From Micrococcus luteus NCTC 2665 (GTDB lineage Bacteria > Actinomycetota > Actinomycetes > Actinomycetales > Micrococcaceae): 32,000 nt of DNA. The translations under genes and the position numbers were made by a program. The DNA is taken from the NCBI RefSeq assembly GCF_000023205.1, contig NC_012803.1, forward strand, positions 2,070,001 through 2,102,000, given 5' to 3'. Positions within the stretch are counted from its first letter, which is position 1. Every line of letters begins with the position of its first letter. This document shows positions 2,419 to 30,923 of this stretch, piece by piece. The notes beneath the pieces are model-generated. The model searched no databases. It was not told where the DNA came from and worked only from the letters and a program-made list of their open reading frames with translations.

Positions 2419-2432
2419 GGATTGTTCAACAA
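2419..2432. promoter_or_regulatory. Candidate GntR-type operator, GGATTGTTCAACAA (core palindrome TTGTTcAACAA), nested in a GCTGTTG/CAACAGC inverted repeat (2409-2436)
   Basis: The 14-mer is identical to 9667-9680, upstream of pxpA. It lies 62 nt upstream of the permease start (2494), in the divergent region shared with the VIT1 gene. Confidence 0.55.
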
Positions 2433-2493
2433 CAGCTACCGTCTCCCCAGCGCCTCGTGACGCCCGTCACCTCGCCTGGCGCCCTCGACGAAG

Positions 2494-3777
2494 GTGACCA
2501 CCGTGTCCCACGCAGACATCCCCCACGCCGGACCGGACGGCTCGACCCCCTCGGGCACCGCGCCGAAGACCGACTCCCGCGCTGCGAGCGCCACCCGGCG
2601 CACCGCACTGCTCGGCGCCATGTTCCTCATGGCCACCTCGGCCATCGGCCCCGGCTTCATCACGCAGACCGCCACGTTCACCGTCCAGATGGGCGCCGCA
2701 TTCGCGTTCGCCATCCTGGTCTCGATCCTCATCGACATCGCCGTCCAGATGAACGTGTGGCGCGTCATCGGCGTCTCCGGCATGCGCGCCCAGGAGCTGG
2801 CGAACAGCGTCCTGCCCGGCCTCGGCTGGGTCCTCGCCGCGCTCGTGTTCCTCGGCGGCATGGTCTTCAACATCGGCAACATCGCCGGCACCGGCCTCGG
2901 CGCGAACGCCATGCTCGGCGTCGACCCCCTGATCGGCGGCGCCGTCTCCGCCCTCATCGCGCTGCTGATCTTCCTCTCCAAGCGCGCCGGTGTGGCCCTG
3001 GACCGGATCGTGGTGGTGCTCGGCGCCGTCATGATCCTGCTGATGCTGTACGTGGCCATCACCTCCGCCCCGCCCGTGGGTGAGGCCCTGCGCCAGTCCG
3101 TGATGCCGGAGGAGGTCGACTTCTTCGTGATCGTCACCCTCGTGGGCGGCACCATCGGCGGCTACATCACCTACGCGGGCGCCCACCGCATGATCGACTC
3201 CGGAGTGAAGGGCGTGGACGACGTCCAGGACATCACCCGCAGCTCCGTGGCCTCGATCCTCGTGACCGGCCTGATGCGTGCCCTCCTGTTCCTGGCGATC
3301 CTCGGCGTCGTCGCCTCGGGCGCGGTCCTGTCCAAGGACAGCCTGGCCGCCTCCGCCTTCCAGGCCGCCGCCGGCGACATAGGGCTGCGCATGTTCGGCA
3401 TCGTCCTGTGGGCCGCCGCCGTGACCTCCGTGATCGGCGCGTCGTACACCTCGATCAGCTTCGTCACCCGCTCCACCACGAGCGTCCGCACCCGCAACCT
3501 GCTGACCGTCGCGTTCATCGTGGTCTGCACCGCCCTCTACCTGGCGCTGCGCCAGGCCCCGCAGACGCTGCTCGTGTTCGCCGGCGCGTTCAACGGCATG
3601 ATCCTGCCGGTCGGCTTCGCGGCCCTCCTCTACGTGGCCTGGCGCCGCCGCGACCTGCTGCACGGCTACCGCTACCCCCGGTGGCTGCTCGTGATGGGCG
3701 CGCTCGCGTGGCTCGTGTCCGTGTTCATCGCGGTGCGCGGGTTCGTCCCGATGGTCACGATGATCACCGGTGCCTGA
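2494..3777 (+). CDS. NRAMP-fold membrane transporter, YcsG-like subfamily (canonical metal-site motifs not seen)
   Basis: 427-aa multi-TM ORF ([24 protein letters not shown]...) resembling NRAMP TM1, but with GPGF in place of DPGN. An in-frame GTG at 2503 is an alternative start. The DUF1445 gene follows immediately. Confidence 0.8.
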
Positions 3778-3778
3778 G

Positions 3779-4582
3779 ATGACCACGACGACGCCGCTGC
3801 CGCCGCTGGACGGCGCCACGACCCCCGCGCAGGCCCGCGAGCGCTTCCGCGCGGGGCTCGTGCGGCCGACCTCGGGGATCGCCGACGGCTACGCCCAGGC
3901 GAACCTCGTCTCGATCCCGCAGGACCACGCCTACGACGTCCTGCTCTTCGCCCAGCGCAACCCCAAGGCCCTGCCGCTGCTCGGCGTGTTCGAGGCCGGC
4001 GAGGTCAACGGCCCCGCACTGGACGGCGACGTCCGCACGGACGTGCCGCAGTACGTGGTGTACCGCGACGGCGTCGAGACGGACCGCCCCACGGATCTGC
4101 TCGACGTGTGGCGGGACGACCTCGTGACGTTCGTGATCGGCTGCTCGTTCACCTTCGAGTCCGCCCTGGTGGCCGAGGGCATCCGGATGGCCCACCAGGA
4201 CGCCGGCGTGAACGTGCCGATGTACCGCACCACGCGGCGCTGCGCCTCGGCGGGCCGCCTCTCGGGCCCGCTCGTGGTCTCGATGCGCCCCATCCCCGCC
4301 GACCGCGTGGCCGACGCCGTGCGCATCACCTCCCGCTACCCCGCCGTGCACGGCGCGCCCGTGCACGTGGGCGACCCGGCCGGCCTGGGGATCACGGACC
4401 TGTCGGCACCGGACTTCGGCGACGCCGTCGAGGTCCCGCAGGGCCACCTGCCCGTGTTCTGGGCGTGCGGGGTGACGCCGCAGGCGGCGATCATGGAGTC
4501 CCGCCCGCCGCTGGCCATCACGCACGCGCCCGGGCACATGCTCATCACGGACCTGCCGGACCGGATGTTCCAGGTCCCGTGA
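3779..4582 (+). CDS. DUF1445/UPF0317 putative hydro-lyase (YcsI / D-glutamate cyclase family)
   Basis: Translation reads ...[52 protein letters not shown]...[12 protein letters not shown]...NVPMYRT...VVSMRP...[14 protein letters not shown]...[10 protein letters not shown], matching the family as I recall it. The ATG at 3779 lies 1 nt after the permease stop. A GTG at 3770 is an alternative start with an 8-nt overlap. Confidence 0.8.
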
Positions 4583-4604: not shown

Positions 4605-5312
4605 TCAGTCCCCCGCGGCGGCGAGGTGCGCCAGGACGAAGTGCTCCGCCTCGTCCAGGTAGCCGCCGAACATGGCGTGCACCGCGGGCAGGTCGCCGAC
4701 CAGCAGCCGCTCCACGATCCACCGGTTGCGGTCCGCGAACTGCACGTGCAGGCGCGTCTGCTCGTCCATCGGATGGAACGCCAGGCGCACGCGGGCCTGC
4801 ACCGACGCCATGAGCCGCGTGAGCTCGGGGGCGCCGGCCAGGTCCACGATGCCGACGTGGACGCGATGGTTGGCGTCGCCCAGGACCCGCGCGGGGGTGT
4901 CCGGGCCGCCGGAGAGCAGGTCCTGGGCACAGCGCAGGTGGCGCGCCGCGCCGGGGGTGAGCTCTCCGTGCTCGAGGGCGCCGAGCTGGATCACCCGACG
5001 CGTGCGGTACAGCCCGCGCACGTCCTCCGGCCCCGGCGCCGCCACGAACACCCCGCGGTGCGGCCGGCGCTCCACGAGGCCCTCCGAGGCCAGCATGGTG
5101 AACGCCTCGCGCAGGCTGTTGCGGCTGACCTGGAGCTCGGCGGCCAGCGCCACCTCCCCCAGCCGCTCCCCCGGCACGAGCCCGGCCGCCGCGATCCGCT
5201 GCCGCAGCTGCGCGGCCGCGGCCACGGGAGCCGGCGCCGGGGCGGACTCCCCGTCACCGGCGCCGGGCGCGAGGTCCTCCCCGGTGACACCGCCGCGCGC
5301 CGGCACCCTCAC
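4605..5312 (-). CDS. GntR family (FadR-like C-terminal domain) transcriptional regulator
   Basis: The winged-helix region reads [55 protein letters not shown], followed by a helical effector domain. The proposed GTG start at 5312-5310 overlaps the upstream TGA (GTGA). An in-frame GTG at 5306 is an alternative. Confidence 0.85.
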
Positions 5313-7084
5313 GCCCCCAGCCGGGCGATCGCCTGGCCGCGCGTCACCGAGGCCGGGGTCTCGGCCACGAGGAGCTGGATCCGGCCCGCACGCGGGGCAC
5401 GGATCGGCGTCTCCATCTTCATCGCCTCGACGATCGCGACCGTGTCGCCCTCGGCCACCTCGGCGCCGTCCTCGACCTTCCACGAGGCCAGGGTGCCGGT
5501 GACCGGCGAGGCCACGGCGCCGTCGTCGTCGGGCTTCCCGGCGCCCGCGGCGCCGGCCGGGGCCGCGGCACCCGGACCGCCGCCTCCGAGGAGGGCCGCG
5601 TAGAGATCGGCGGGCAGGCCCAGGCGCACGGCGCGGCCGTCCAGCTCCACGGTGACGGCGGTGCGGCCGCCGGCGGGCACCTCGGCGCCCAGGTAGGGGG
5701 ACTCGGCCAGCGGCTCGGCGAACTCGGACTCGATCCACGTGGTGTAGACGCCGAGGCGGTCCCCCGAGGTGAAGGCGTCCTGCTCGAGCACGGCGCGGTG
5801 GAACGGCACCACGGTGGGCACGCCGTCGATGCGCAGCTCGGCCAGGGCGTCGCGGGCGCGGGCGACGGCCTGGGCGCGGTCCTCGCCCCACACGATGAGC
5901 TTGGCGAGCAGGGAGTCGTACTCACCCGGCACCACGGAGCCGGTGCGGACGCCGGAGTCCATGCGGACCCCGGGGCCGGTGGGGGCCTCGAACGCGTCGA
6001 TCGGGCCGGGCACGGGCAGGAAGCCGTACGCCGGCTCCTCGGCGTTGAGGCGGAACTCGAGGGCGTGGCCGCGCGGCGTCGGGTCCTCGGGGATGCTCAG
6101 CGGCTCGCCGGCGGCGACGCGGAACTGCTCGCGCACCAGGTCCACACCGAAGACCTCCTCGGTGACCGGATGCTCCACCTGCAGGCGGGTGTTCACCTCC
6201 AGGAAGCTGATGAGGCCGTCCGGGGCCACGAGGTACTCGACCGTGCCGGCCCCGGTGTACCCGGCGGCGCGGCAGATCTCGCGGGCGGAGGTGTGGATGC
6301 GCTCGCGCTGCTCGTCCGTGAGGAACGGCGCCGGGGCCTCCTCCACGAGCTTCTGGTTGCGGCGCTGCAGGGAGCAGTCGCGGGTGCCGAGCACGGCCAC
6401 GTGGCCGTGCTCGTCGGCGAGGACTTGGGCCTCCACGTGGCGGGGGCGGTCCAGGAAGCGCTCCACGAAGCACTCGCCGCGGCCGAATGCGGCCACGGCC
6501 TCGCGGACGGTCGCCTCGAACGCGTCCTCGACGTCGCCGAGCTCACGCACCACGCGGATGCCGCGGCCGCCGCCGCCGAAGGCCGCCTTGATCGCGATCG
6601 GCAGGCCGTGCTCCTCGGCGAACGCGCGCGCGGCGGCGGCGTCCGGCACGGGGCCGTCCGAGCCCGGCACGAGCGGGGCGCCCGCCTGCTGGGCGAGGGA
6701 GCGGGCGGTGATCTTGTCGCCGAGGGCGCGGATGGCGTCCGGCGACGGGCCGATCCAGGTCATCCCGGCGTCGATCACGGCCTGCGCGAAGTCGGCGTTC
6801 TCGGAGAGGAAGCCGTAGCCCGGGTGCACGGCGTCGGCGCCGGCGCGGCGGGCGACGTCGAGGACCGCGTCGATCTTCAGGTAGGTGTCCGCCGAGGACG
6901 CGCCCGGCAGGTGGAAGGCCTCGTCCGCGACGGCCACGTGCAGGGCGTCGGCGTCCGGATCCGAGTAGACGGCGATCGAGGCGATGCCGTGGTCGCGGGC
7001 GGCGCGGGCCACGCGCACGGCGATCTCGCCGCGGTTGGCGATGAGCACCCGCGTGACGGGGCGGGCGGCGGGGGTGGTGGTCAT
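5309..7084 (-). CDS. Biotin carboxylase fused to biotin carboxyl carrier domain (acyl-CoA carboxylase alpha-subunit architecture, BC+BCCP)
   Basis: [14 protein letters not shown], the ATP-grasp region ([28 protein letters not shown]) and a C-terminal lipoyl/biotinyl domain with EAMKME. The ATG at 7084 overlaps the pxpB::pxpC stop (ATGA). Confidence 0.93.
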
Positions 7085-8838
7085 GCGGGGGTCTCCTCGG
7101 AGGGCGATGCGGAGTCGACGACGGTCTCGGCGCCGGGGCGGGGATGGGGGACGAAGCGGACGCGGGCGCCCGGCGGCAGCTGGGCCGCCAGGCTGAGGTC
7201 CGCGCGGGCCACGACGCCGATCACCGGGTAGCCGCCGGTGACCGGATGGTCGGAGAGGAACAGGACGGGCTCACCCGAGGGCGGCACCTGCAGCGCGCCG
7301 CGCACGGCGCCCTCGGACTTCAGCTCACCCTCGCGCACGCGCTCGAGCGGCGCGCCGCCGTCGGGGGCCGTGAGGCGCACCCCGATCCGGTCGGTCTGCT
7401 GGCTCACATCCCAGTCCTGCGTGAACAGGCGCTCCAGGCCCGCCGCGCCGAACCAGTCGTCGCGGGGGCCGGGGACCACGCGCAGCACGGCCACCTGTCC
7501 GGGCGCGGGCATGGGGCGCAGCGAGGTCTCCGGGTCCCCCACCAGCACGACGCCGGCCTCCTCCGAGGCGGGGGCGCCGGCGGCGGCCGGGCTCGCGGCC
7601 GAGGCGCCGGCGGCGCCCCTCGCATCCGGGCCGACGCGGCGGGCGAGGCGGTCCCCCGCCGCCAGCGGGGCGGGGCCGAGCCCGGACAGGGTGTCGGTCG
7701 AGCGGCTGCCGAGCACGCGCGGCACGTCGAGCCCGCCCCGGAGGCCCACGTACACGCGCAGGCCGCCGGCCGGCTCGTCCACCGTCAGCGTCTGGCCGTC
7801 CAGCACGACGAACGGGGTGCGGGCGGGCACCCGGCGCGTGGCGCCGTCGGCCGCGGTAATCGTCCCTCCGGCCTCGGCGCCGGCCAGGGCCATCACCTGG
7901 TGGCCGTGCGCGGTGAGGGTGAGGCCCCCCAGGACGGTCTCCAGCACCGCCTCGCGTGAGCGGTTGCCCACGAGCCGGTTCGCCTGGCGCGCCGCGTCCC
8001 GGTCGGCCGCGCCGGACGCGACGACGCCGAGGTCGCCCAGGCCCGGGCGGCCCAGGTCCTGGACCAGGGTCAGGAGCCCCGGGTCGACGACGGTGACACC
8101 GCGGCGGCCGGCCACGGGCGGGAGGCCGGCCGCGGCGTCGGCGGGCGTGTCCTCGACCGCCGCGTCCGTGCCGGAGGTGACGGACGCCGTCGGGCGCACG
8201 GGGACGTAGCGGACACGGTCGCCGGGCTGCAGCAGGGCGGGCTGCTCGCGGCCGAGGTCCCACAGGGCCGCGGTGGTGTGGCCCAGCAGCTGCCAGCCGC
8301 CGGGCGAGGTGCGCGGGTAGACGGCGGAGAAGGCCCCGGCGACGGCGACGGCGCCCGCGGGGACGGCCGTGCGGGGCGAACTGCGGCGGGGCGCCTCGAA
8401 CGGGGCCGCCTCGGAGGCGCAGTACATGAACCCCGGCGCGAAGCCGCCGAACGCGGCGAACCAGTCGGCCTCGCTGTGGGCCCGGATGACGCCGTCGACG
8501 CCGAGCCCGGTGAGCCGGCCGACCTCGGCGAGGTCCTCACCGTCGTAGACCACGGGGATCTCGACGATGCGGCCCCCCGTCAACTCACCGGCGTCCGGGG
8601 TGAGGGTGCTGACCCGCGGTGCGGCATGCTCGGCGGCGGCCTGCGAGGTGAAGGTCACCAGGACGGTCGCGGCGGCGGCCATGACCTGGCGCTGGCCGCG
8701 CTCCGGGTGGGCCGTGAGATGGGCGTGGACGGCCATGACGTCCTCGAGCGAGGCGCACTCGACGAGGAAGCCCTGTGTGCCGACCCAGCGGATCGGGCGG
8801 GCCGGCGGTGTGGTGGCGGAGTGACGTGGGTCGCTCAT
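7081..8838 (-). CDS. Fused 5-oxoprolinase subunits PxpB (KipI/AHS1-like, N-terminal) and PxpC (KipA/AHS2-like, C-terminal), 585 aa
   Basis: The N-terminal half reads GFLVEC...[16 protein letters not shown]...[14 protein letters not shown]...[31 protein letters not shown]. An Ala/Thr/Asp-rich linker follows. The C-terminal half reads [18 protein letters not shown]...[18 protein letters not shown]...DRIGVRL...[12 protein letters not shown]. Both ends overlap neighbouring genes as ATGA. Confidence 0.88.
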
Positions 8839-9602
8839 GCGAAGGCCTTGACGGCCACGCCCGCGCCCTCGAGCGCGCGGCGCACGGCCGCGGCCATGGC
8901 CACGGCGCCGGGCGTGTCGCCGTGCAGGCAGATGCTCTCGGCGTCGACGCGCACGTCCGTGCCGTCCACTGCTGTGACGACGCCCTCGGTGGCCAGGCGC
9001 ACCATGCGGGCGGCGACGGCGTCCTCGTCGTGGAGGACCGCGCCGGGCTCGCGGCGGGAGACGAGCGTGCCGTCCGGGTTGTAGCCGCGGTCCGCGAAGG
9101 CCTCGGCGACGCCGCGCAGCCCCGCGGCGGCCGCCTTGTCCAGGGCGACGGAGCCGGGCAGGAGCAGCAGCGGGAGGTCGGAGCCGAACGCCTTGACGCC
9201 GTCGACGACGGCCTGGGCGTGCGCCTCGTGACGGACGATCGTGTTGTAGAGGGCGCCGTGCGGCTTCACGTAGCGGACCTGGCCGCCGGCCGCGCGGGCG
9301 AGCGCGTCGAGGGCGCCGATCTGGTAGTGGACGTCGTCGGCCAGCTCGGTGGGCGTGCAGTCCAGGAAGCGGCGGCCGAAGCCGGCGAGGTCGCGGTAGC
9401 CCACGTGCGCGCCGATCGTGACGCCGGCGGCGACCGCGTCACGGCAGGTCTGGGCGATCCCCGAGGGATCGCCCGCGTGGAAGCCGCACGCGACGTTGGC
9501 GGAGGAGACGGAGGGCATGATGGCGGCGTCGTCCCCCATCGTCCACGAGCCGAAGGACTCGCCGACGTCGGAGTTCAGGTCGATCTGCGGCGCGTGAGAC
9601 AC
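8835..9602 (-). CDS. pxpA: 5-oxoprolinase subunit A (LamB/YcsF family)
   Basis: [12 protein letters not shown]....[62 protein letters not shown] start at 9602-9600 with AGAGGA about 8 nt upstream. Confidence 0.93.
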
Positions 9603-9666: not shown

Positions 9667-9683
9667 GGATTGTTCAACAATCC
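9667..9683. promoter_or_regulatory. Perfect 17-bp palindrome GGATTGTTcAACAATCC, candidate operator of the local GntR regulator
   Basis: It lies 65 nt upstream of the pxpA start and shares GGATTGTTCAACAA with 2419-2432. On the pxpA strand it contains TTGAAC, followed 17 nt later by CAAGAT, a weak -35/-10-like arrangement. Confidence 0.6.
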
Positions 9684-9721: not shown

Positions 9722-9782
9722 AACGCGGGTTGAGTTATCGCGGGTGTCCGAGCCCGAGACCTGCGATAACTCAACCCGCGTT
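9722..9782. repeat. Perfect 20-bp inverted repeat (AACGCGGGTTGAGTTATCGC / GCGATAACTCAACCCGCGTT) with a 21-nt spacer
   Basis: Arms at 9722-9741 and 9763-9782 are exact reverse complements. It lies 20 nt downstream of the yqjG-like stop and upstream of the pxpA promoter region. No U-tract on either strand. Confidence 0.85.
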
Positions 9783-25496: not shown

Positions 25497-26078
25497 TCAT
25501 CCTCGCCGCACTGTGTCGAGGTCCCACGCGTGGGGCAGGGGCGTCCGGGTCGACGGCAGGGCCACGCTGCGCCGCCACTCGTGCAGCCACTCCGGCAGCG
25601 TCGGCTCCCCCGCGAGGTCGTGGCCGGCCGCCGCCGCGATCGCCCGGATCTCGTCGTTCTCCACGGGGCGGCCGTCCTTCTTGCGCAGGCGCGTGCAGAT
25701 GTACGCGCGCACCGCGACGTCGCCGTCGACCACCACGCGCTGCTCGAACCACACCGCGCGCTCGTCCAGGCCGATCAGCCGCGTCTCCACGTCGAACCGC
25801 TGCCCCAGGGTCACGGAGCGGCGGAACGCGATCTGCTCGGCCTGCACCACGGGCGTCCAGCCGCGACGGCGGATCTCGTCCCAGAGACCGGTGCGGACCA
25901 TCGCGTCGAAGCGGCCGAGGTCGAACAGCCCGAAGTACTGGCCGTTGTTGACGTGCAGGGCGATGTCCACGTCCGTGGGCAGGGCGCGCATCGGCAGCGT
26001 CGTCGGCTCCCAGAGCCCGACGCGCGGGCGGCGGCGGGCGCGGGCGACGACCCAGATCGTGCGGGGGATCAGATGCAT
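25497..26078 (-). CDS. Hotdog-fold acyl-CoA thioesterase-like protein
   Basis: DVDIALHVNNGQYFGLFDLGRFD...VVQAEQIAFRRSV is a 4HBT-like pattern. GAGGAGG lies 7 nt upstream of the ATG, and the gene starts 19 nt after the putA stop. Confidence 0.7.
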   Translation of the reverse strand: MHLIPRTIWVVARARRRPRVGLWEPTTLPMRALPTDVDIALHVNNGQYFGLFDLGRFDAMVRTGLWDEIRRRGWTPVVQAEQIAFRRSVTLGQRFDVETRLIGLDERAVWFEQRVVVDGDVAVRAYICTRLRKKDGRPVENDEIRAIAAAAGHDLAGEPTLPEWLHEWRRSVALPSTRTPLPHAWDLDTVRRG

Positions 26079-26097: not shown

Positions 26098-29000
26098 TCA
26101 CAGGACCCCCTCGGTCAGATGGTCCGGCGTGCCGAACCGGTGGGCGGTCACGGACACGGCCTGTTCGTGCAGGAACGGCAGCAGCTCCACCTCACCGGCG
26201 CTCACCACGGGGCCAGCGTAGACCGCCACGTCGGGGGTGTCGCCGAGCGCCGCGTGGAGCGCGGTCCGCGCCGCCTCGGCCGCTTCCCGGTTGCCGGTCC
26301 AGTCGGCGACGAGCCGGATCCGTGCGTCGCCGCCGCCCTCCGTCGCGGGCGGGACCAGGGCCAGCCGCCGGGCGCGGTCGTGGAACACGGCGTCGTCCTC
26401 GACGACGACGTCCACCGGCGCGGCCGTGCCGGCACCCTCCGTGCGGACGGACCGGACCAGCTCCTCCACCCGGCCGCGCACGGCCTCGGCCGAGAGCCTG
26501 TCCGCGTCGGGCCCCTCCGCGGTGGGGGTCGGGCGCAGGCTCACGGTCATGGGCGCCCCGGCGCGCAGGCCGGCGGAGACGATGCGCAACAGGTGGTCGG
26601 CGGGCCCCGAGTGCCGGCGCACGAGGACCGGGGTGGGGACGTGACGCATCACGTTCCGCTCGGCCTCGAGCGCGGAGACGTCCGTGGCCACCCCGAACAC
26701 GGTGGTCCACGCGTGGGTGTCGAGGGCGCGGGCGGTCTCGAGCCAGGACGCTCCCGCACCGTCGGCCTCGGACCCGGGCCGTCCCTCTCCCCCGGCCCAC
26801 GTGGGCGCGTCCTCCCAGTCCACGAGGCCGTGCAGGTAGTGCGGCCCGCCGGCCTTCGTGGTGGGGCCGACGACGGAACGCTTCCAGCCGCCGAAGGGCT
26901 GGCGGCGCACGATGGCCCCGGTGATGCCGCGGTTCACGTAGAGGTTGCCGGCGCGCACGCCGCGCAGCCACACGTCGATCTCCTCCCGGTCCAGCGAGTG
27001 CAGCCCGGAGGTGAGGCCGTAGTCCACGGCGTTCACGATCCCGATCGCCTCCTCGAGCGTCTCGGCCGTCATCACGGCCAGCACGGGGCCGAAGTACTCG
27101 GTGAGGTGGGCGTCGGCGCCGGGGCGGACGCCGGAGCGGATGCCCGGGCTCCACAGGCGACCCGTCTCGTCCAGCTGCCGCGGACGCAGGGCCCACCGCT
27201 CCCCCGGGCCGAGCTCGGTGAGCCCGCGGCGCAGCTTCTCGCCGGGGGCCTCGATCACGGGGCCCATCTCGGCGCGCGGGTCCGCGGGGTGCGCCACGTG
27301 CAGGGACGAGGCGGCGTCCAGCAGCTGCCGGTGGAAGCGCTCGGAGGTGGCCACGGAGCCGACGAGCACCACGAGGGAGGACGCCGAGCACTTCTGGCCG
27401 GCGTGACCGAACGCGGACTGGACCACGTCCTTCGTGGCCAGGTCCAGATCCGCGGACGGGGTCACGATCACGGCGTTCTTGCCGGAGGTCTCGGCGAGCA
27501 GGTGCAGGTCGGGGCGCATCCCCTTGAACAGCCGTGCGGTGTCCCAGCCGCCGGTGAGGATGAGCCGCTCGACGGCCGGGTCGGTCACGAGCACCGCGCC
27601 GACCTCCGCCTCGTCCTCGTCCGCCAGCGTCACCAGGCGCACGAGGTCCGCGGGGTCGTGCCCGGCGAGCGGGCCGCCGTCGTCGAACAGGCCCGAGTCC
27701 CGCAGCCCGGCCACGATCAGCTCCCACGCGACCGCGCCCGTCCGCTCGGACTGCGGGGCCGGCTTGAACACCACGGGCGAGCCGGCGCCGAGCGCGGCGA
27801 GGACGCCCCCGACCGGGATGGCCACGGGGAAGTTCCACGGCGGGATCACCAGGGTCAGGCGGACGGGCACGGCGCGAGCGCCCTCCACCGCGTCCAGGCC
27901 GCGGGCCAGGCGCGCGTAGTAGTGCGCGAAGTCCACGGCCTCGGAGACCTCGGGGTCGCCCTGGTCCAGGGTCTTGCCGGTCTCGGCGGCGGCCACCTCC
28001 AGCAGACGGGCCCGGCCGGCGTGCAGGGCCCGGCCGACGGCGTCCAGCGCGTCGGCGCGCTCGTGGCCGGTGAGCGCGCCCCAGCGGGCGCCGGGGTCGG
28101 CGGTGGCGGCGATGGCGGCGCGGGCGTCGTCGGCCGTGGTGGCGCGGTGGGCGCGGACGGTGTCCGTCCCGAGGTCCGAGCCCGGGACGGCCGTGAGGAT
28201 CCGGCGGGCCCACTCCCGGTTGCCGGGCAGCGCGGGGTCCGTGTCCGGGGTGTTGGCGAAGCCGTCCACGGGGGCGGGGGTCGGCCCGTCCTCCCCGCGG
28301 GACCGGTCCTGGACGCGGTTCGGACGGGGCACGGCCGCGTCCAGGTGGCGCAGCGAGGCGCGGAAGCGCTCCTCCTCGCGGGCGAACAGGTCCGCGTCCG
28401 CGCCCAGGTCGAACACGGCGGACATGAAGTTCTCCGGGGAGGCACCCTCCTCGAGGCGGCGCACGAGGTAGGAGATCGCCACGTCGAACTCCTCGGGCCG
28501 CACCACGGGCGTGTAGAGCAGCAGGGCGCCGACGTCGGCCCGGACGGCGGCGGCCTGGCCGGTGGCCATGCCGAGCAGCATCTCGAACTCCACCGCGGCC
28601 GAATCGAGGCCGCGGCGCTCGATCAGCCGGTGGGCCAGGGCCACGTCGAAGAGGTTGTGCCCGGCCACGCCGATGCGCACGTGGGCCAGATGCTCCGGGG
28701 TGAGCGCGTAGTTGAGCACGCGCTTGTAGTTGGTGTCCGCCTCCTGCTTCGAGCCCACCGTGGCCAGCGGCCAGCCCGTCAGGGAGGCCTGCATCCGCTC
28801 CATGGGCAGGTTGGCGCCCTTGACCACGCGTACCTTGACCGGGGCGCCGCCGGCGGCGACGCGGCGCGCGGCCCACTCCTGCAGGCGCACCATGGCCGCG
28901 AGCGCGTCCGGCAGGTAGGCCTGCAGCACGATGCCGGCCTCGTAGTCGCGCAGGCCCGGCTGCTCGAGCAGGGCGGTGAACACGTTGAGCGTGAGGTCGA

Positions 29001-29742
29001 GGTCGCGGTACTCCTCCATGTCCAGGTTGATGAAGGTGTCCCGGTCCCGGGCGAGCTCGAACAGCGGGGTGAGCCGCTCGGTGATGTCCGCGACGGCCTC
29101 GTCGAACGCGTAGGGCGCGTGCGGGGCGGTGGCGGCGGAGACCTTCACGGACACGTAGTCGACGTCGTCGCGGCGGATCAGCGCGGCGATGCCCTCGAGC
29201 CGGCGGTCCGCCTCGCCCTGACCGAGGATCGCCTCGCCCAGCAGGTTGATGTTCAGCCGGGTGTGCTCGTCGCGCAGGGCCGTGATGGCCTTGCCGAGCT
29301 GCCGGTCCCGCGCGTCGACGATCAGGTGGGAGACCATGCGCCGCAGCACGCGGCGGGCCGTGGGGACGGCGATGCGCGGCACAAGCGGGGCCGCGCGGCC
29401 GCCGGCGCCGAGGACGGCGCGCAGTGCCGGGGGCAGGAAGCCGGGGGCGCGGCCGGCGAGCTCCCGCAGCGCCCGGGCGGCGATCGCGGGGTCCTCGGGG
29501 CGGACCACGTGGTCCACGAAGCGCACGATGAAGTCGAGGCCGCCCGGCTCCTTCAGGGCGCCCGCCAGCTGGCGGGCCGCGAAGTCGGCCTCATGGTCGC
29601 GGGACTCGGCGAGCCAGCGCCTCACCTGCGCGACGGCGTCGTCGGCGAGGGCGTGCAGGTCGGCGGGGTCGGGGATCCCGCCGGTCGCGCCGAGGACCCG
29701 GTCGAGATCGTCGTGGTCCTGGGCGGAGAACGTCGCGGTCAT
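26098..29742 (-). CDS. putA: Bifunctional proline dehydrogenase / L-glutamate gamma-semialdehyde (P5C) dehydrogenase
   Basis: From the ATG at 29742 (MTATFSAQ...): a PRODH barrel region (VSVKVSA, LDMEEY, VVKGAN) followed by an ALDH domain (PWNFP, ETSGKNA, FGHAGQKCSASS). About 1214 aa, with no N-terminal RHH DNA-binding domain evident. Confidence 0.92.
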   Translation of the reverse strand: MTATFSAQDHDDLDRVLGATGGIPDPADLHALADDAVAQVRRWLAESRDHEADFAARQLAGALKEPGGLDFIVRFVDHVVRPEDPAIAARALRELAGRAPGFLPPALRAVLGAGGRAAPLVPRIAVPTARRVLRRMVSHLIVDARDRQLGKAITALRDEHTRLNINLLGEAILGQGEADRRLEGIAALIRRDDVDYVSVKVSAATAPHAPYAFDEAVADITERLTPLFELARDRDTFINLDMEEYRDLDLTLNVFTALLEQPGLRDYEAGIVLQAYLPDALAAMVRLQEWAARRVAAGGAPVKVRVVKGANLPMERMQASLTGWPLATVGSKQEADTNYKRVLNYALTPEHLAHVRIGVAGHNLFDVALAHRLIERRGLDSAAVEFEMLLGMATGQAAAVRADVGALLLYTPVVRPEEFDVAISYLVRRLEEGASPENFMSAVFDLGADADLFAREEERFRASLRHLDAAVPRPNRVQDRSRGEDGPTPAPVDGFANTPDTDPALPGNREWARRILTAVPGSDLGTDTVRAHRATTADDARAAIAATADPGARWGALTGHERADALDAVGRALHAGRARLLEVAAAETGKTLDQGDPEVSEAVDFAHYYARLARGLDAVEGARAVPVRLTLVIPPWNFPVAIPVGGVLAALGAGSPVVFKPAPQSERTGAVAWELIVAGLRDSGLFDDGGPLAGHDPADLVRLVTLADEDEAEVGAVLVTDPAVERLILTGGWDTARLFKGMRPDLHLLAETSGKNAVIVTPSADLDLATKDVVQSAFGHAGQKCSASSLVVLVGSVATSERFHRQLLDAASSLHVAHPADPRAEMGPVIEAPGEKLRRGLTELGPGERWALRPRQLDETGRLWSPGIRSGVRPGADAHLTEYFGPVLAVMTAETLEEAIGIVNAVDYGLTSGLHSLDREEIDVWLRGVRAGNLYVNRGITGAIVRRQPFGGWKRSVVGPTTKAGGPHYLHGLVDWEDAPTWAGGEGRPGSEADGAGASWLETARALDTHAWTTVFGVATDVSALEAERNVMRHVPTPVLVRRHSGPADHLLRIVSAGLRAGAPMTVSLRPTPTAEGPDADRLSAEAVRGRVEELVRSVRTEGAGTAAPVDVVVEDDAVFHDRARRLALVPPATEGGGDARIRLVADWTGNREAAEAARTALHAALGDTPDVAVYAGPVVSAGEVELLPFLHEQAVSVTAHRFGTPDHLTEGVL

Positions 29743-29873
29743 GGCCGCACTCTGCACGTGTGCCGGGTCACAGGTCAAACCGCCGCGGCTTCCTGTCAGA
29801 CGCCTATGCTCGATGGACATCCCCTCGCCGCGCGCCCGCGCGTCGCCGCCGTCTTCCCAGGAGCCCGTCCGCC

Positions 29874-30923
29874 ATGGCCGCCGCCGACCCCGTCCCCACC
29901 GACGCGCGGGAGCGCCGGGACGTCGTCGTGCCCGTGCCCGGACCCGAGGACCCGCCCGAGCGGGCCTGGCTCGTCCTGCCCCACCGCCACCCGGTGCGGA
30001 CGCTGCTGGACGAGACGCGGGACGCCGTCGTCGGCCTGGCCGAGACGCTCGCCGCCGTACTGCCGGTGACCGTGCTCGCCCACCCGCGCGACGCCGGGGC
30101 GGCGCGGCTGGTGCCCCCGGAGGTGGACCTGCTGCGCGCGCCCGTGGGCTCGCCGCTGCTGGGCCGCACCGGGCCGAGCTTCGTCCGGCGCCCCGAGGGC
30201 CTGGCCGCCGTCGCCTGGCGCAGCGCCGCGGGCCTGACCGGGACCGGGCCGCTCGACGGAGCGGCCGCGACGGCCGTGGCGGAGGCGGCGGGACTGCCGC
30301 TGCTCACGCCCCTGCTGTGCGCCCCGCGCGGGGCCTGGGTGACCGACGGCGAGGGGACGGCCGTGGTGGCCGCGGACCCCTTGCTGGACGGGCGGATCAA
30401 CGGCGCGTGGACCCCCGGCCAGGTGGCCGCCGAGTTCGCCGCCCTGCTGGGGATCACCCGGGTGCTGTGGCTGCCGCCGGCACCGCGGCCGGACACCGGG
30501 CCGTGGGGCGGGCCCGGCCACCTGGCCTCGTGGGTGCGGCTGCGGGGCGACGGCGAGGCCGCCGTGCACTGGCGCGGCGACCGGTTCCACCCCGAGCACC
30601 CCTACGCCGCGGCGGTGCTGCGCTTCCTGCAGGGCGCCGACGACGCCGCCGGACGGCCCCTGCGCGTGCGCACGGTGACCGGGGCGGCGCAGCCCGCCGC
30701 GTACGACCCGGCCGAGCGGGGCCCCCGCTCCCTCCTGGACACTCTGCCGCTGGGCGCGGCGGTGCTGCGCCCGGCGTTCGAGGACGCCGCGGGCGAGGAG
30801 GCCGCGGCCGCCGCGTGTGCGGCACTGCACCCGGGGCTGCCCCAGCTGTCGTTCCCCGCCCCGCCGCTGCTGCGGCTGGCCGGCGCGCTCAACGACCTGG
30901 TGCTGCTCCAGCCTCGCCCGTGA
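29874..30923 (+). CDS. Agmatine deiminase / PAD_porph-fold protein with non-canonical residues at expected catalytic positions
   Basis: From the ATG at 29874 (AGGAG 9 nt upstream): AWLVLPH, PVTVLA, GRTGPSFV, VTDGEGTAVV, LGITRVLWL, DAAGRPLRV. The C-terminus reads LAGALNDLVLLQPRP where the family normally has GGG..HC.TQQ.P. Confidence 0.6.
   Translation: MAAADPVPTDARERRDVVVPVPGPEDPPERAWLVLPHRHPVRTLLDETRDAVVGLAETLAAVLPVTVLAHPRDAGAARLVPPEVDLLRAPVGSPLLGRTGPSFVRRPEGLAAVAWRSAAGLTGTGPLDGAAATAVAEAAGLPLLTPLLCAPRGAWVTDGEGTAVVAADPLLDGRINGAWTPGQVAAEFAALLGITRVLWLPPAPRPDTGPWGGPGHLASWVRLRGDGEAAVHWRGDRFHPEHPYAAAVLRFLQGADDAAGRPLRVRTVTGAAQPAAYDPAERGPRSLLDTLPLGAAVLRPAFEDAAGEEAAAAACAALHPGLPQLSFPAPPLLRLAGALNDLVLLQPRP

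Follow-up and report, generated by a model that had tools for sequence, protein, structure and literature searches.

The stretch of DNA considered here (the window, 32 kb of the genome of Micrococcus luteus NCTC 2665, contig NC_012803.1, with a G+C content of about 75%) carries on its minus strand a single unit of four genes, which encode, in this order, a PxpA protein, a fusion of PxpB and PxpC (hereafter PxpBC), a protein that joins biotin carboxylase (BC) with biotin carboxyl carrier protein (BCCP), and a regulator of the GntR/FCD type. We read this unit, together with a small convergent operon, as a 5-oxoproline-responsive regulon that would encode a version of PxpABC, the 5-oxoprolinase of prokaryotes, with a link to biotin, and we put the probability of this reading at roughly one half. 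The first gene, pxpA (8835..9602), encodes 255 aa of the LamB/YcsF family (Pfam LamB_YcsF, E 5.5e-102), a predicted metal-dependent lactam hydrolase subunit that scores above the cut-off of the NCBIfam PxpA subfamily (NF003814, 366.9 vs 226). It is followed by the pxpB::pxpC fusion (7081..8838, 585 aa), in which Pfam places a PxpB/KipI-like CT_C_D domain (residues 16-203, nt 8230-8793) before a PxpC/KipA-like CT_A_B domain (residues 270-564, nt 7147-8031). The BC-BCCP gene (5309..7084, 591 aa; Pfam Biotin_carb_N, CPSase_L_D2, Biotin_carb_C and Biotin_lipoyl) encodes a BC domain (residues 10-452, nt 5729-7057), a linker β-hairpin (residues ~475-492, nt 5608-5661) and a BCCP domain (residues 524-589, nt 5318-5515), the latter with the motif VEAMKMET at residues 552-559 and the codon of the expected biotinyl-Lys556 at nt 5417-5419. 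The last gene (4605..5312, 235 aa; Pfam GntR and FCD) encodes the PxpR-like regulator. Start and stop codons overlap by 4 nt at every junction, namely as ATGA between pxpA and pxpBC and between pxpBC and the BC-BCCP gene, and as GTGA between the latter and the GntR gene. An earlier note on this DNA, made from its letters alone, had described the first three genes, the 591-aa protein with its EAMKME motif and its translational coupling to the fusion, all of which agree with the Pfam domains, the motif and the overlaps just given, and had missed the fourth coupled gene. It had also stated that no AccD/PccB-type carboxyltransferase gene occurs in the window, and indeed Pfam Carboxyl_trans has no match in any plausible open reading frame (ORF) of the 32 kb; genes for allophanate hydrolase or urea-carboxylase-associated proteins are likewise missing from the window.

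Is the BC-BCCP gene there by chance? In an unbiased scan of one genome per species, a search with aligned fusion sequences yielded 80 loci, 76 of which had enough downstream sequence for their gene order, mapped by tblastn, to be assessed. The order pxpA-pxpBC-BC/BCCP, with the BC-BCCP gene directly 3' of the fusion, was found in 53 of these 76 loci, and in the remaining 23 the BC-BCCP gene is not linked; pxpA lies immediately 5' of pxpBC in nearly all related loci. BC-linked loci occur in Micrococcaceae, Microbacteriaceae, Corynebacterium, Bifidobacterium and Bowdeniella and, among proteobacteria, in Xenorhabdus, Pelomonas and a metagenome-assembled genome of the Paracoccaceae, and the same mapping places Nramp and/or DUF1445 genes nearby in about half of the loci. 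By clustering of the neighbouring ORFs, no AccD-like family is found within 10 kb of any of the 59 BC-linked loci; in the Bifidobacterium locus, where a continuation of the contig into an AccD gene was looked for, the last 330 bp hold no coding sequence. The catalytic motifs of BC and the MKM/EAMKME motif are intact in nearly all pxp-linked BC-BCCP proteins. Because the BC-BCCP gene follows pxpBC in 53 of the 76 loci of an unbiased scan, its linkage is not a matter of chance, and a chance neighbourhood was rejected on this conserved order together with the plasmid-borne modules described below. These data support the view that BC-BCCP belongs with PxpA and the PxpBC fusion as a partner that is conserved and co-transcribed with them, and is not an accidental neighbour.

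Two variations on this arrangement were seen among the loci. The genome of Nesterenkonia natronophila contains two adjacent pxpA-pxpBC copies (L053, 2716-9869 and 11280-13759), one accompanied by BC-BCCP, GntR, Nramp and DUF1445 genes and the other by none of them. In some BC-linked loci, a pair of membrane proteins that resemble DUF969 and DUF979, as judged by eye from the sequence, replaces Nramp (L014, 14338-16019; L017, 16748-18423; L060, 1026-2747).

The module is also mobile. The fused gene was found on 202 plasmid records, 95 of them of Klebsiella, and one plasmid region each from Klebsiella (IncFIB), P. aeruginosa, Pantoea, S. meliloti and Paracoccus was inspected. According to the annotation, the order on plasmids is GntR / (Nramp or MFS, the major facilitator superfamily) - PxpA - (hydro-lyase) - PxpBC fusion - BC protein, the last being a protein of about 580 aa labelled "biotin carboxylase N-terminal domain-containing protein". 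The Klebsiella pneumoniae plasmid pKleb8A7 (IncFIB; L091, 3139-10299) carries the GntR, Nramp, PxpA, DUF1445, PxpBC and BC-BCCP genes together, and its BC-BCCP is 55% identical to the window protein over the full length and keeps the MKM motif; in P. aeruginosa the module (L088, 905-9359) is flanked by two insertion sequence (IS) elements. On the Klebsiella, Pseudomonas and Pantoea plasmids the operon itself includes the DUF1445 gene, which is placed between pxpA and pxpBC (L091, 6152-6958; L088, 5188-5994; L089, 5178-5975). We take the plasmid hosts (Klebsiella, Pseudomonas, Pantoea, S. meliloti and Paracoccus) to make their malonyl-CoA with AccABCD; in these hosts, at least, BC-BCCP is dedicated to the module. 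The carriage by Klebsiella IncFIB plasmids also means that the function of the module bears on the nitrogen and damage metabolism of clinical strains.

The second line of evidence concerns regulation. A palindrome of the PxpR operator type, GGATTGTTCAACAATCC, lies at 9667..9683, upstream of pxpA and about 70 nt from its start codon. A pattern search matched its 13-nt core perfectly at 9669-9681, where chance alone would give 0.01 matches in the window. This core is identical to that of the validated PxpR site of C. glutamicum, AGATTGTTCAACAATCT, whose mutation or deletion derepressed pxpTABC in a 2026 study; in the same study PxpR, a GntR-type repressor, bound 5-oxo-L-proline with a dissociation constant (KD) of 726 nM and was shown not to bind proline, glutamate, glutamine or aspartate. 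A second operator of this type (2419..2435, core ATTGTTCAACAAC, one mismatch) is located about 60 nt upstream of the start of an Nramp-family transporter gene (2494..3777, plus strand; 427 aa, YcsG/MntG-like, Pfam Nramp), which forms, with a gene of the DUF1445/D-glutamate cyclase family (3770..4582, plus strand; 270 aa, a YcsI-like "putative hydro-lyase", Pfam D-Glu_cyclase E 1.9e-66, NCBIfam NF003969 396.5 vs a cut-off of 324), the operon convergent with the pxp operon. The 17-bp inverted repeat characteristic of PxpR control is therefore found in two copies, with a GntR/FCD gene in the operon itself. In the species-representative set, the palindrome precedes pxpA in 36 of the 53 BC-linked loci and in none of the 23 unlinked ones, it is present on four of the five proteobacterial plasmid modules inspected, and a GntR homologue accompanies 46 of the 59 BC-linked loci. 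Because the core of the operator is identical to that of the validated site, the GntR protein of the window is most likely a PxpR orthologue, and the two operons with their operator copies would make up one 5-oxoproline regulon; from these sites we infer a PxpR-like control by 5-oxoproline. Since both operons carry an operator validated for a 5-oxoproline sensor, 5-oxoproline is the likeliest substrate and most likely also the inducer, rather than urea or an exotic lactam. The conserved operator is, besides, a direct genetic handle for experiments.

The families involved are those of the known PxpABC systems (YcsF/KipI/KipA of B. subtilis, YbgL/J/K of E. coli, and Cg1141-1139 with PxpR in C. 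glutamicum), with the operator shared with C. glutamicum, and the B. subtilis operon ycsF-ycsG-ycsI-kipI-kipA even has the same gene set, including Nramp and DUF1445, minus BC-BCCP. In these systems, ATPase activity has been reported for PxpB/C and lactamase activity for PxpA, the YcsG protein encoded in the B. subtilis pxp operon is a Mn2+ importer (PMC10448178), and there are PxpABC paralogues in P. putida specific for other lactams (butyrolactam, not 5-oxoproline). As stated in PMC10448178, Niehaus et al. 2017 had already included the M. luteus cluster itself among those with pxpABC + ycsG. Unlike PxpABC, the window has PxpB and PxpC fused and a BC-BCCP gene translationally coupled within the operon, and its fusion stays under the NCBIfam equivalog cut-offs both of PxpC (NF045499, 167 vs 500) and of PxpB (TIGR00370, 131.7 vs 145.55), and just under that of TIGR00724 (229.1 vs 230.2). 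Over the PxpC domain its identity to E. coli PxpC is about 37%.

Among proteins of solved structure, both halves of the fusion are closest not to PxpB and PxpC of E. coli, but to the mycobacterial proteins MSMEG_0435 (187 bits) and MSMEG_0436 (144 bits), followed by E. coli YbgK (127 bits), E. coli YbgJ (116 bits) and the K. lactis urea carboxylase (116 bits). A tree places MSMEG_0435 as the sister of the whole fused family, and the M. luteus PxpC domain is 46% identical to it, which equals its identity to the most distant members of the fused family. An AlphaFold2 model of the fusion (pLDDT 85.7, pTM 0.83), searched with Foldseek, gave target-normalised TM-scores of 0.87 for MSMEG_0435, 0.90 for MSMEG_0436 and roughly 0.8 for E. 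coli YbgJK. As a whole chain, the model is best matched by Thermus thermophilus TTHA0988 (PDB 3oep/3opf/3ore; target-normalised TM-score 0.83-0.85, 32% identity), a fused KipI-KipA protein of the same domain order, and the predicted fold agrees with such an arrangement of a KipI-like followed by a KipA-like half in one chain. What makes the mycobacterial relatives relevant is their partner. In the cryo-electron microscopy (cryo-EM) of Liang and Rubinstein (bioRxiv 2025; PNAS 2026), MSMEG_0435-0436 are seen on the LCC complex, holding two BCCP domains of AccA3, with one biotin placed so as to join a carboxylation reaction; the PxpC-like protein is in physical contact with the BCCP-biotin, and AccA3 is, in turn, the closest solved relative of the window BC-BCCP. 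The differences are nonetheless considerable: MSMEG_0435/0436 are split genes unlinked to accA3, whereas the window fusion is co-transcribed with pxpA and BC-BCCP and has no AccD nearby, and the mycobacterial complex sits on an AccD4/AccD5 core and has been interpreted as regulatory. Furthermore, MSMEG_0435-0436 are inactive as a urea carboxylase and do not have key residues of that enzyme (Liang and Rubinstein), and the expression of both genes is induced by nitrogen limitation.

How would a 5-oxoprolinase make use of a biotin carboxylase? A PxpR-like GntR repressor would bind the palindromes in front of pxpA and of the Nramp-DUF1445 operon and be released as 5-oxoproline builds up, upon which PxpA, the PxpB::PxpC fusion and the AccA3-type BC-BCCP protein would be produced in coupled amounts. 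The BC domain would use ATP and bicarbonate to carboxylate the biotin of its own BCCP domain, which would then swing into the PxpBC fusion, where 5-oxoproline would receive the carboxyl group on its ring nitrogen, just as urea receives one on a nitrogen from urea carboxylase. This N-carboxylation would activate the lactam carbonyl for the hydrolysis of the ring by PxpA, and the N-carboxyglutamate formed would shed its CO2 spontaneously, with a net conversion of 5-oxoproline, ATP and 2 H2O into glutamate, ADP and Pi in which bicarbonate would act catalytically. The route would parallel that of urea amidolyase, from urea to allophanate and then to hydrolysis, and the Nramp protein would probably supply Mn2+. 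We infer the contact between BCCP and PxpBC by analogy with the structure 9yx5, and the sequence of N-carboxylation, hydrolysis and decarboxylation is proposed after the example of urea amidolyase. In favour of this biotin-linked 5-oxoprolinase we count the coupled genes, their conservation and mobility, the operator, the intact BC-BCCP, the closest relatives that grip biotin and the predicted fold, as well as the handling of other lactams by PxpABC paralogues and the induction of MSMEG_0435/0436 under nitrogen limitation.

Several observations weigh against it. Two Frigoribacterium loci (L059, 11713-13260, and L065) have a linked BC with degenerate motifs (e.g., EFGTALAVEHAATE in one sequence) and no BCCP, which suggests that the linked BC copy is decaying in this genus. 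BC-linked and unlinked fusions interleave in the PxpBC tree (like the BC tree, a neighbour-joining tree without support values), by which a separation of the two kinds of fusion was rejected, and a clade-specific "biotin" signature was not found in the BC-linked fusions. In 2017, Niehaus and colleagues reportedly reconstituted the activity with the recombinant PxpA, B and C proteins of B. subtilis. With pxpTABC, C. glutamicum is able to grow on 5-oxoproline, and its stand-alone PxpABC comes without an encoded BC-BCCP; since stand-alone PxpABC works and PxpB/PxpC are reported to have ATPase activity, the PxpBC fold apparently couples ATP without biotin. The cryo-EM authors, moreover, read the contact between MSMEG_0435-0436 and AccA3 as a regulatory sequestration, and the biotin dependence of the module is a prediction from genes and structures.

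The similarity of the BC-BCCP protein to AccA3 opens the way to a different account. Of the solved structures, the one nearest to it is M. smegmatis AccA3 (residues 6-589 are matched with 748 bits, compared to 494 bits for the best chain other than AccA3), to which it is about 61% identical in a trimmed alignment, and it has the AccA3-type architecture of BC, linker β-hairpin and BCCP, with the motifs intact and AccA3 similarity over the full length. In the neighbour-joining tree, mycobacterial AccA3 nests within the pxp-linked BC-BCCP sequences, and a clean split of dedicated pxp-linked proteins from housekeeping AccA3 was accordingly rejected. The hairpin, which in AccA3 of the mycobacterial LCC complex wraps a helix of AccE, is kept in all pxp-linked BC-BCCP proteins, among them the ones from Xenorhabdus, Pelomonas, Paracoccaceae and the Klebsiella plasmid. 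It may bind a helix of another protein of the module. We know of no AccE in the hosts just listed. The 120 best homologues of BC-BCCP are all from Micrococcaceae and at least 67% identical to it, with no second M. luteus protein among these 120 and with a pxp-linked context in the four that were checked (4/4); the literature on carboxylase genes of M. luteus yielded nothing of use on a second AccA3-type gene. All this would fit a BC-BCCP that is the general housekeeping acyl-CoA carboxylase α subunit, working with distal AccD and AccE, to whose biotinyl-BCCP PxpBC would bind in order to throttle or sense the synthesis of fatty-acid precursors, as proposed for MSMEG_0435-0436; co-transcription would balance binder and target, and the 5-oxoprolinase would be independent of biotin. 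The conserved AccE-binding hairpin, the regulatory interpretation favoured by the cryo-EM authors and the unlinked pxpA-pxpBC loci, which need any BC-BCCP in trans, speak for this account. Genes for AccD (β) and AccE (ε) usually lie near AccA3-type genes. On the other side, the BC-BCCP gene travels on Klebsiella, Pseudomonas and Pantoea plasmids, where it would have no β partner in hosts that presumably use AccABCD; an essential gene would be oddly placed third in an operon behind the site of a substrate-responsive repressor; the basic segment that contacts AccD4 (511-517) is absent from BC-BCCP; and Frigoribacterium tolerates the decay of its linked copy, so that its family must have further copies. 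In M. luteus itself BC-BCCP may be, or may also be, the housekeeping AccA3, and this is the main rival of our reading; as a general explanation it has the plasmid modules and the substrate-responsive operator against it, and we consider it unlikely.

A further question is whether the module, even if biotin-dependent, acts on 5-oxoproline at all. Urea carboxylase/amidolyase (K. lactis, PDB 3va7 and 5i8i) has the same domain set (BC, KipA-like A/B, KipI-like C/D and BCCP) and the same proposed logic of amide N-carboxylation and subsequent hydrolysis, and the modelled fusion has the fold of its carboxyltransferase (CT) domain. The earlier note had proposed that BC-BCCP and the fusion recreate the domain set of urea carboxylase on two chains, but the fusion is no simple re-creation of that enzyme: the order of the subdomains is permuted (C/D then A/B in the fusion, A/B then C/D in urea carboxylase), the identity is 29-37%, and the urea carboxylase model TIGR02712 gives 527.7 for BC-BCCP and 159.2 for the fusion, far below its cut-off of 1303.85. 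The comparison of predicted structures that the note had called for agrees in the shared fold, but only the A/B half of urea carboxylase is aligned to the fusion, both by phmmer and by Foldseek, and these alignments do not extend into the C/D part with the catalytic Lys1605 of K. lactis urea amidolyase. Urea carboxylase is, in addition, a single chain, whereas the window has two chains and a separate LamB hydrolase in place of an allophanate hydrolase of the amidase-signature type, and the window regulator points to 5-oxoproline. As the main explanation, urea carboxylase was rejected on the scores of TIGR02712, the inactive MSMEG relatives and the 5-oxoproline operator. The proposal of a role other than that of a plain 5-oxoprolinase does not stand as far as the substrate is concerned, given the sensor operator before both operons; that of a partnership of BC-BCCP with PxpBC and PxpA does, backed by the 53 loci, the plasmid modules and the binding of AccA3-type biotin by the MSMEG relatives; and that of a biotin-dependent activation of an amide or lactam gains from the BC-BCCP linkage and loses from the AccA3-type nature of the protein, which could be a housekeeping α subunit. 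The note had also held that the chemistry of such clusters has not been worked out experimentally, and a literature search found no paper on a BC-BCCP partner or on this chemistry.

The module could, then, be a biotin-dependent carboxylase/hydrolase for some other amide or lactam, be it urea, 2-pyrrolidinone, 5-oxo-D-proline or a further cyclic amide, in which case 5-oxo-L-proline would be no more than a regulatory look-alike. The homology to the urea carboxylase CT domain, the butyrolactam-specific paralogues of P. putida and the scores of the fusion below the PxpB and PxpC equivalog cut-offs would all agree with this. In Aspergillus nidulans, lamA and lamB encode a urea-amidolyase-like biotin protein and a homologue of LamB/PxpA that serve the use of 2-pyrrolidinone (a γ-lactam), LamA being, unlike the window proteins, a eukaryotic single chain; to our knowledge, their chemistry has not been worked out. 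A hydro-lyase of the D-glutamate cyclase family, which makes 5-oxo-D-proline, accompanies the module and hints at the D-enantiomer. Nevertheless, the operator core is that of a regulator that binds 5-oxo-L-proline and none of proline, glutamate, glutamine and aspartate, and because of this evidence the D-enantiomer is less likely as a substrate than 5-oxo-L-proline. Some BC-linked loci carry a pair resembling DUF969/DUF979, a pair linked to 5-oxoproline uptake, genes that accompany urea carboxylase or allophanate hydrolase are not in the window, the M. smegmatis relatives are without urea carboxylase activity and key residues, and the urea carboxylase model scores far too low. Judging from these sequences, another amide or lactam is less likely than 5-oxo-L-proline, and we hold this explanation to be quite improbable. 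Finally, that this is a plain PxpABC with a functionally unrelated passenger, retained by genomic accident or selfish co-transfer, would suit the stand-alone PxpABC systems that work without BC-BCCP and its absence from 23 of the 76 related loci, but is very hard to reconcile with start/stop overlaps on both sides of the gene, an order kept in 53 genomes of two phyla and in IS-flanked plasmid modules, catalytic and biotinylation motifs under purifying selection, and broadly congruent BC and PxpBC trees.

Returning to the proposed biotin-linked 5-oxoprolinase, neither the gene families nor their fused architecture nor the pxp cluster of M. luteus is new, and public annotation already shows the BC-BCCP neighbour; new, it seems, is the recognition of BC-BCCP as an integral component of one PxpABC variant, mobile and under PxpR control, and its link to the AccA3/MSMEG_0435-0436 complex with the mechanistic hypothesis that results. 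How PxpABC couples ATP to the opening of a lactam is not understood, and a system with its own biotin carboxylase suggests a concrete mechanism; if true, the strategy of urea amidolyase would have a second example and biotin enzymes would gain a new class of reaction, and the hold of MSMEG_0435-0436 on the AccA3 biotin might find its explanation. The idea can be taken further, in a form that we regard as tentative: the PxpBC proteins of this clade, including mycobacterial Rv0263c/Rv0264c, might be true carboxybiotin-dependent lactam N-carboxylases fed by AccA3-type BC-BCCP proteins, and the MSMEG_0435-0436/LCC assembly might be catalytic. In Micrococcus and on the Klebsiella plasmids the BC-BCCP would then be encoded in cis, and mycobacteria and the unlinked loci would borrow theirs in trans, from the fatty-acid carboxylase; the MSMEG_0435-0436/LCC assembly would open 5-oxoproline or a lactam and would not be regulatory; and AccA3 would be a common donor of carboxybiotin to carbon and nitrogen metabolism. 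In M. tuberculosis, the MSMEG_0435-0436 orthologue Rv0263c is required for survival in transmission.

Two minor features of the window lie outside the module. Between the stop codon of a glutathione S-transferase (GST)-like gene and the PxpR-type operator there is a perfect inverted repeat (9722-9782) with 20-bp arms (AACGCGGGTTGAGTTATCGC ... GCGATAACTCAACCCGCGTT) and a 21-nt loop, possibly a terminator or some kind of repeat element. More genes for the metabolism of proline and glutamate lie 14-20 kb from the module, perhaps by coincidence, and encode two proteins: a protein with the flavin mononucleotide (FMN) domain of glutamate synthase (23471-25774, minus strand) and a PutA-type proline dehydrogenase/aldehyde dehydrogenase of 1401 aa (26098-30303, minus strand).

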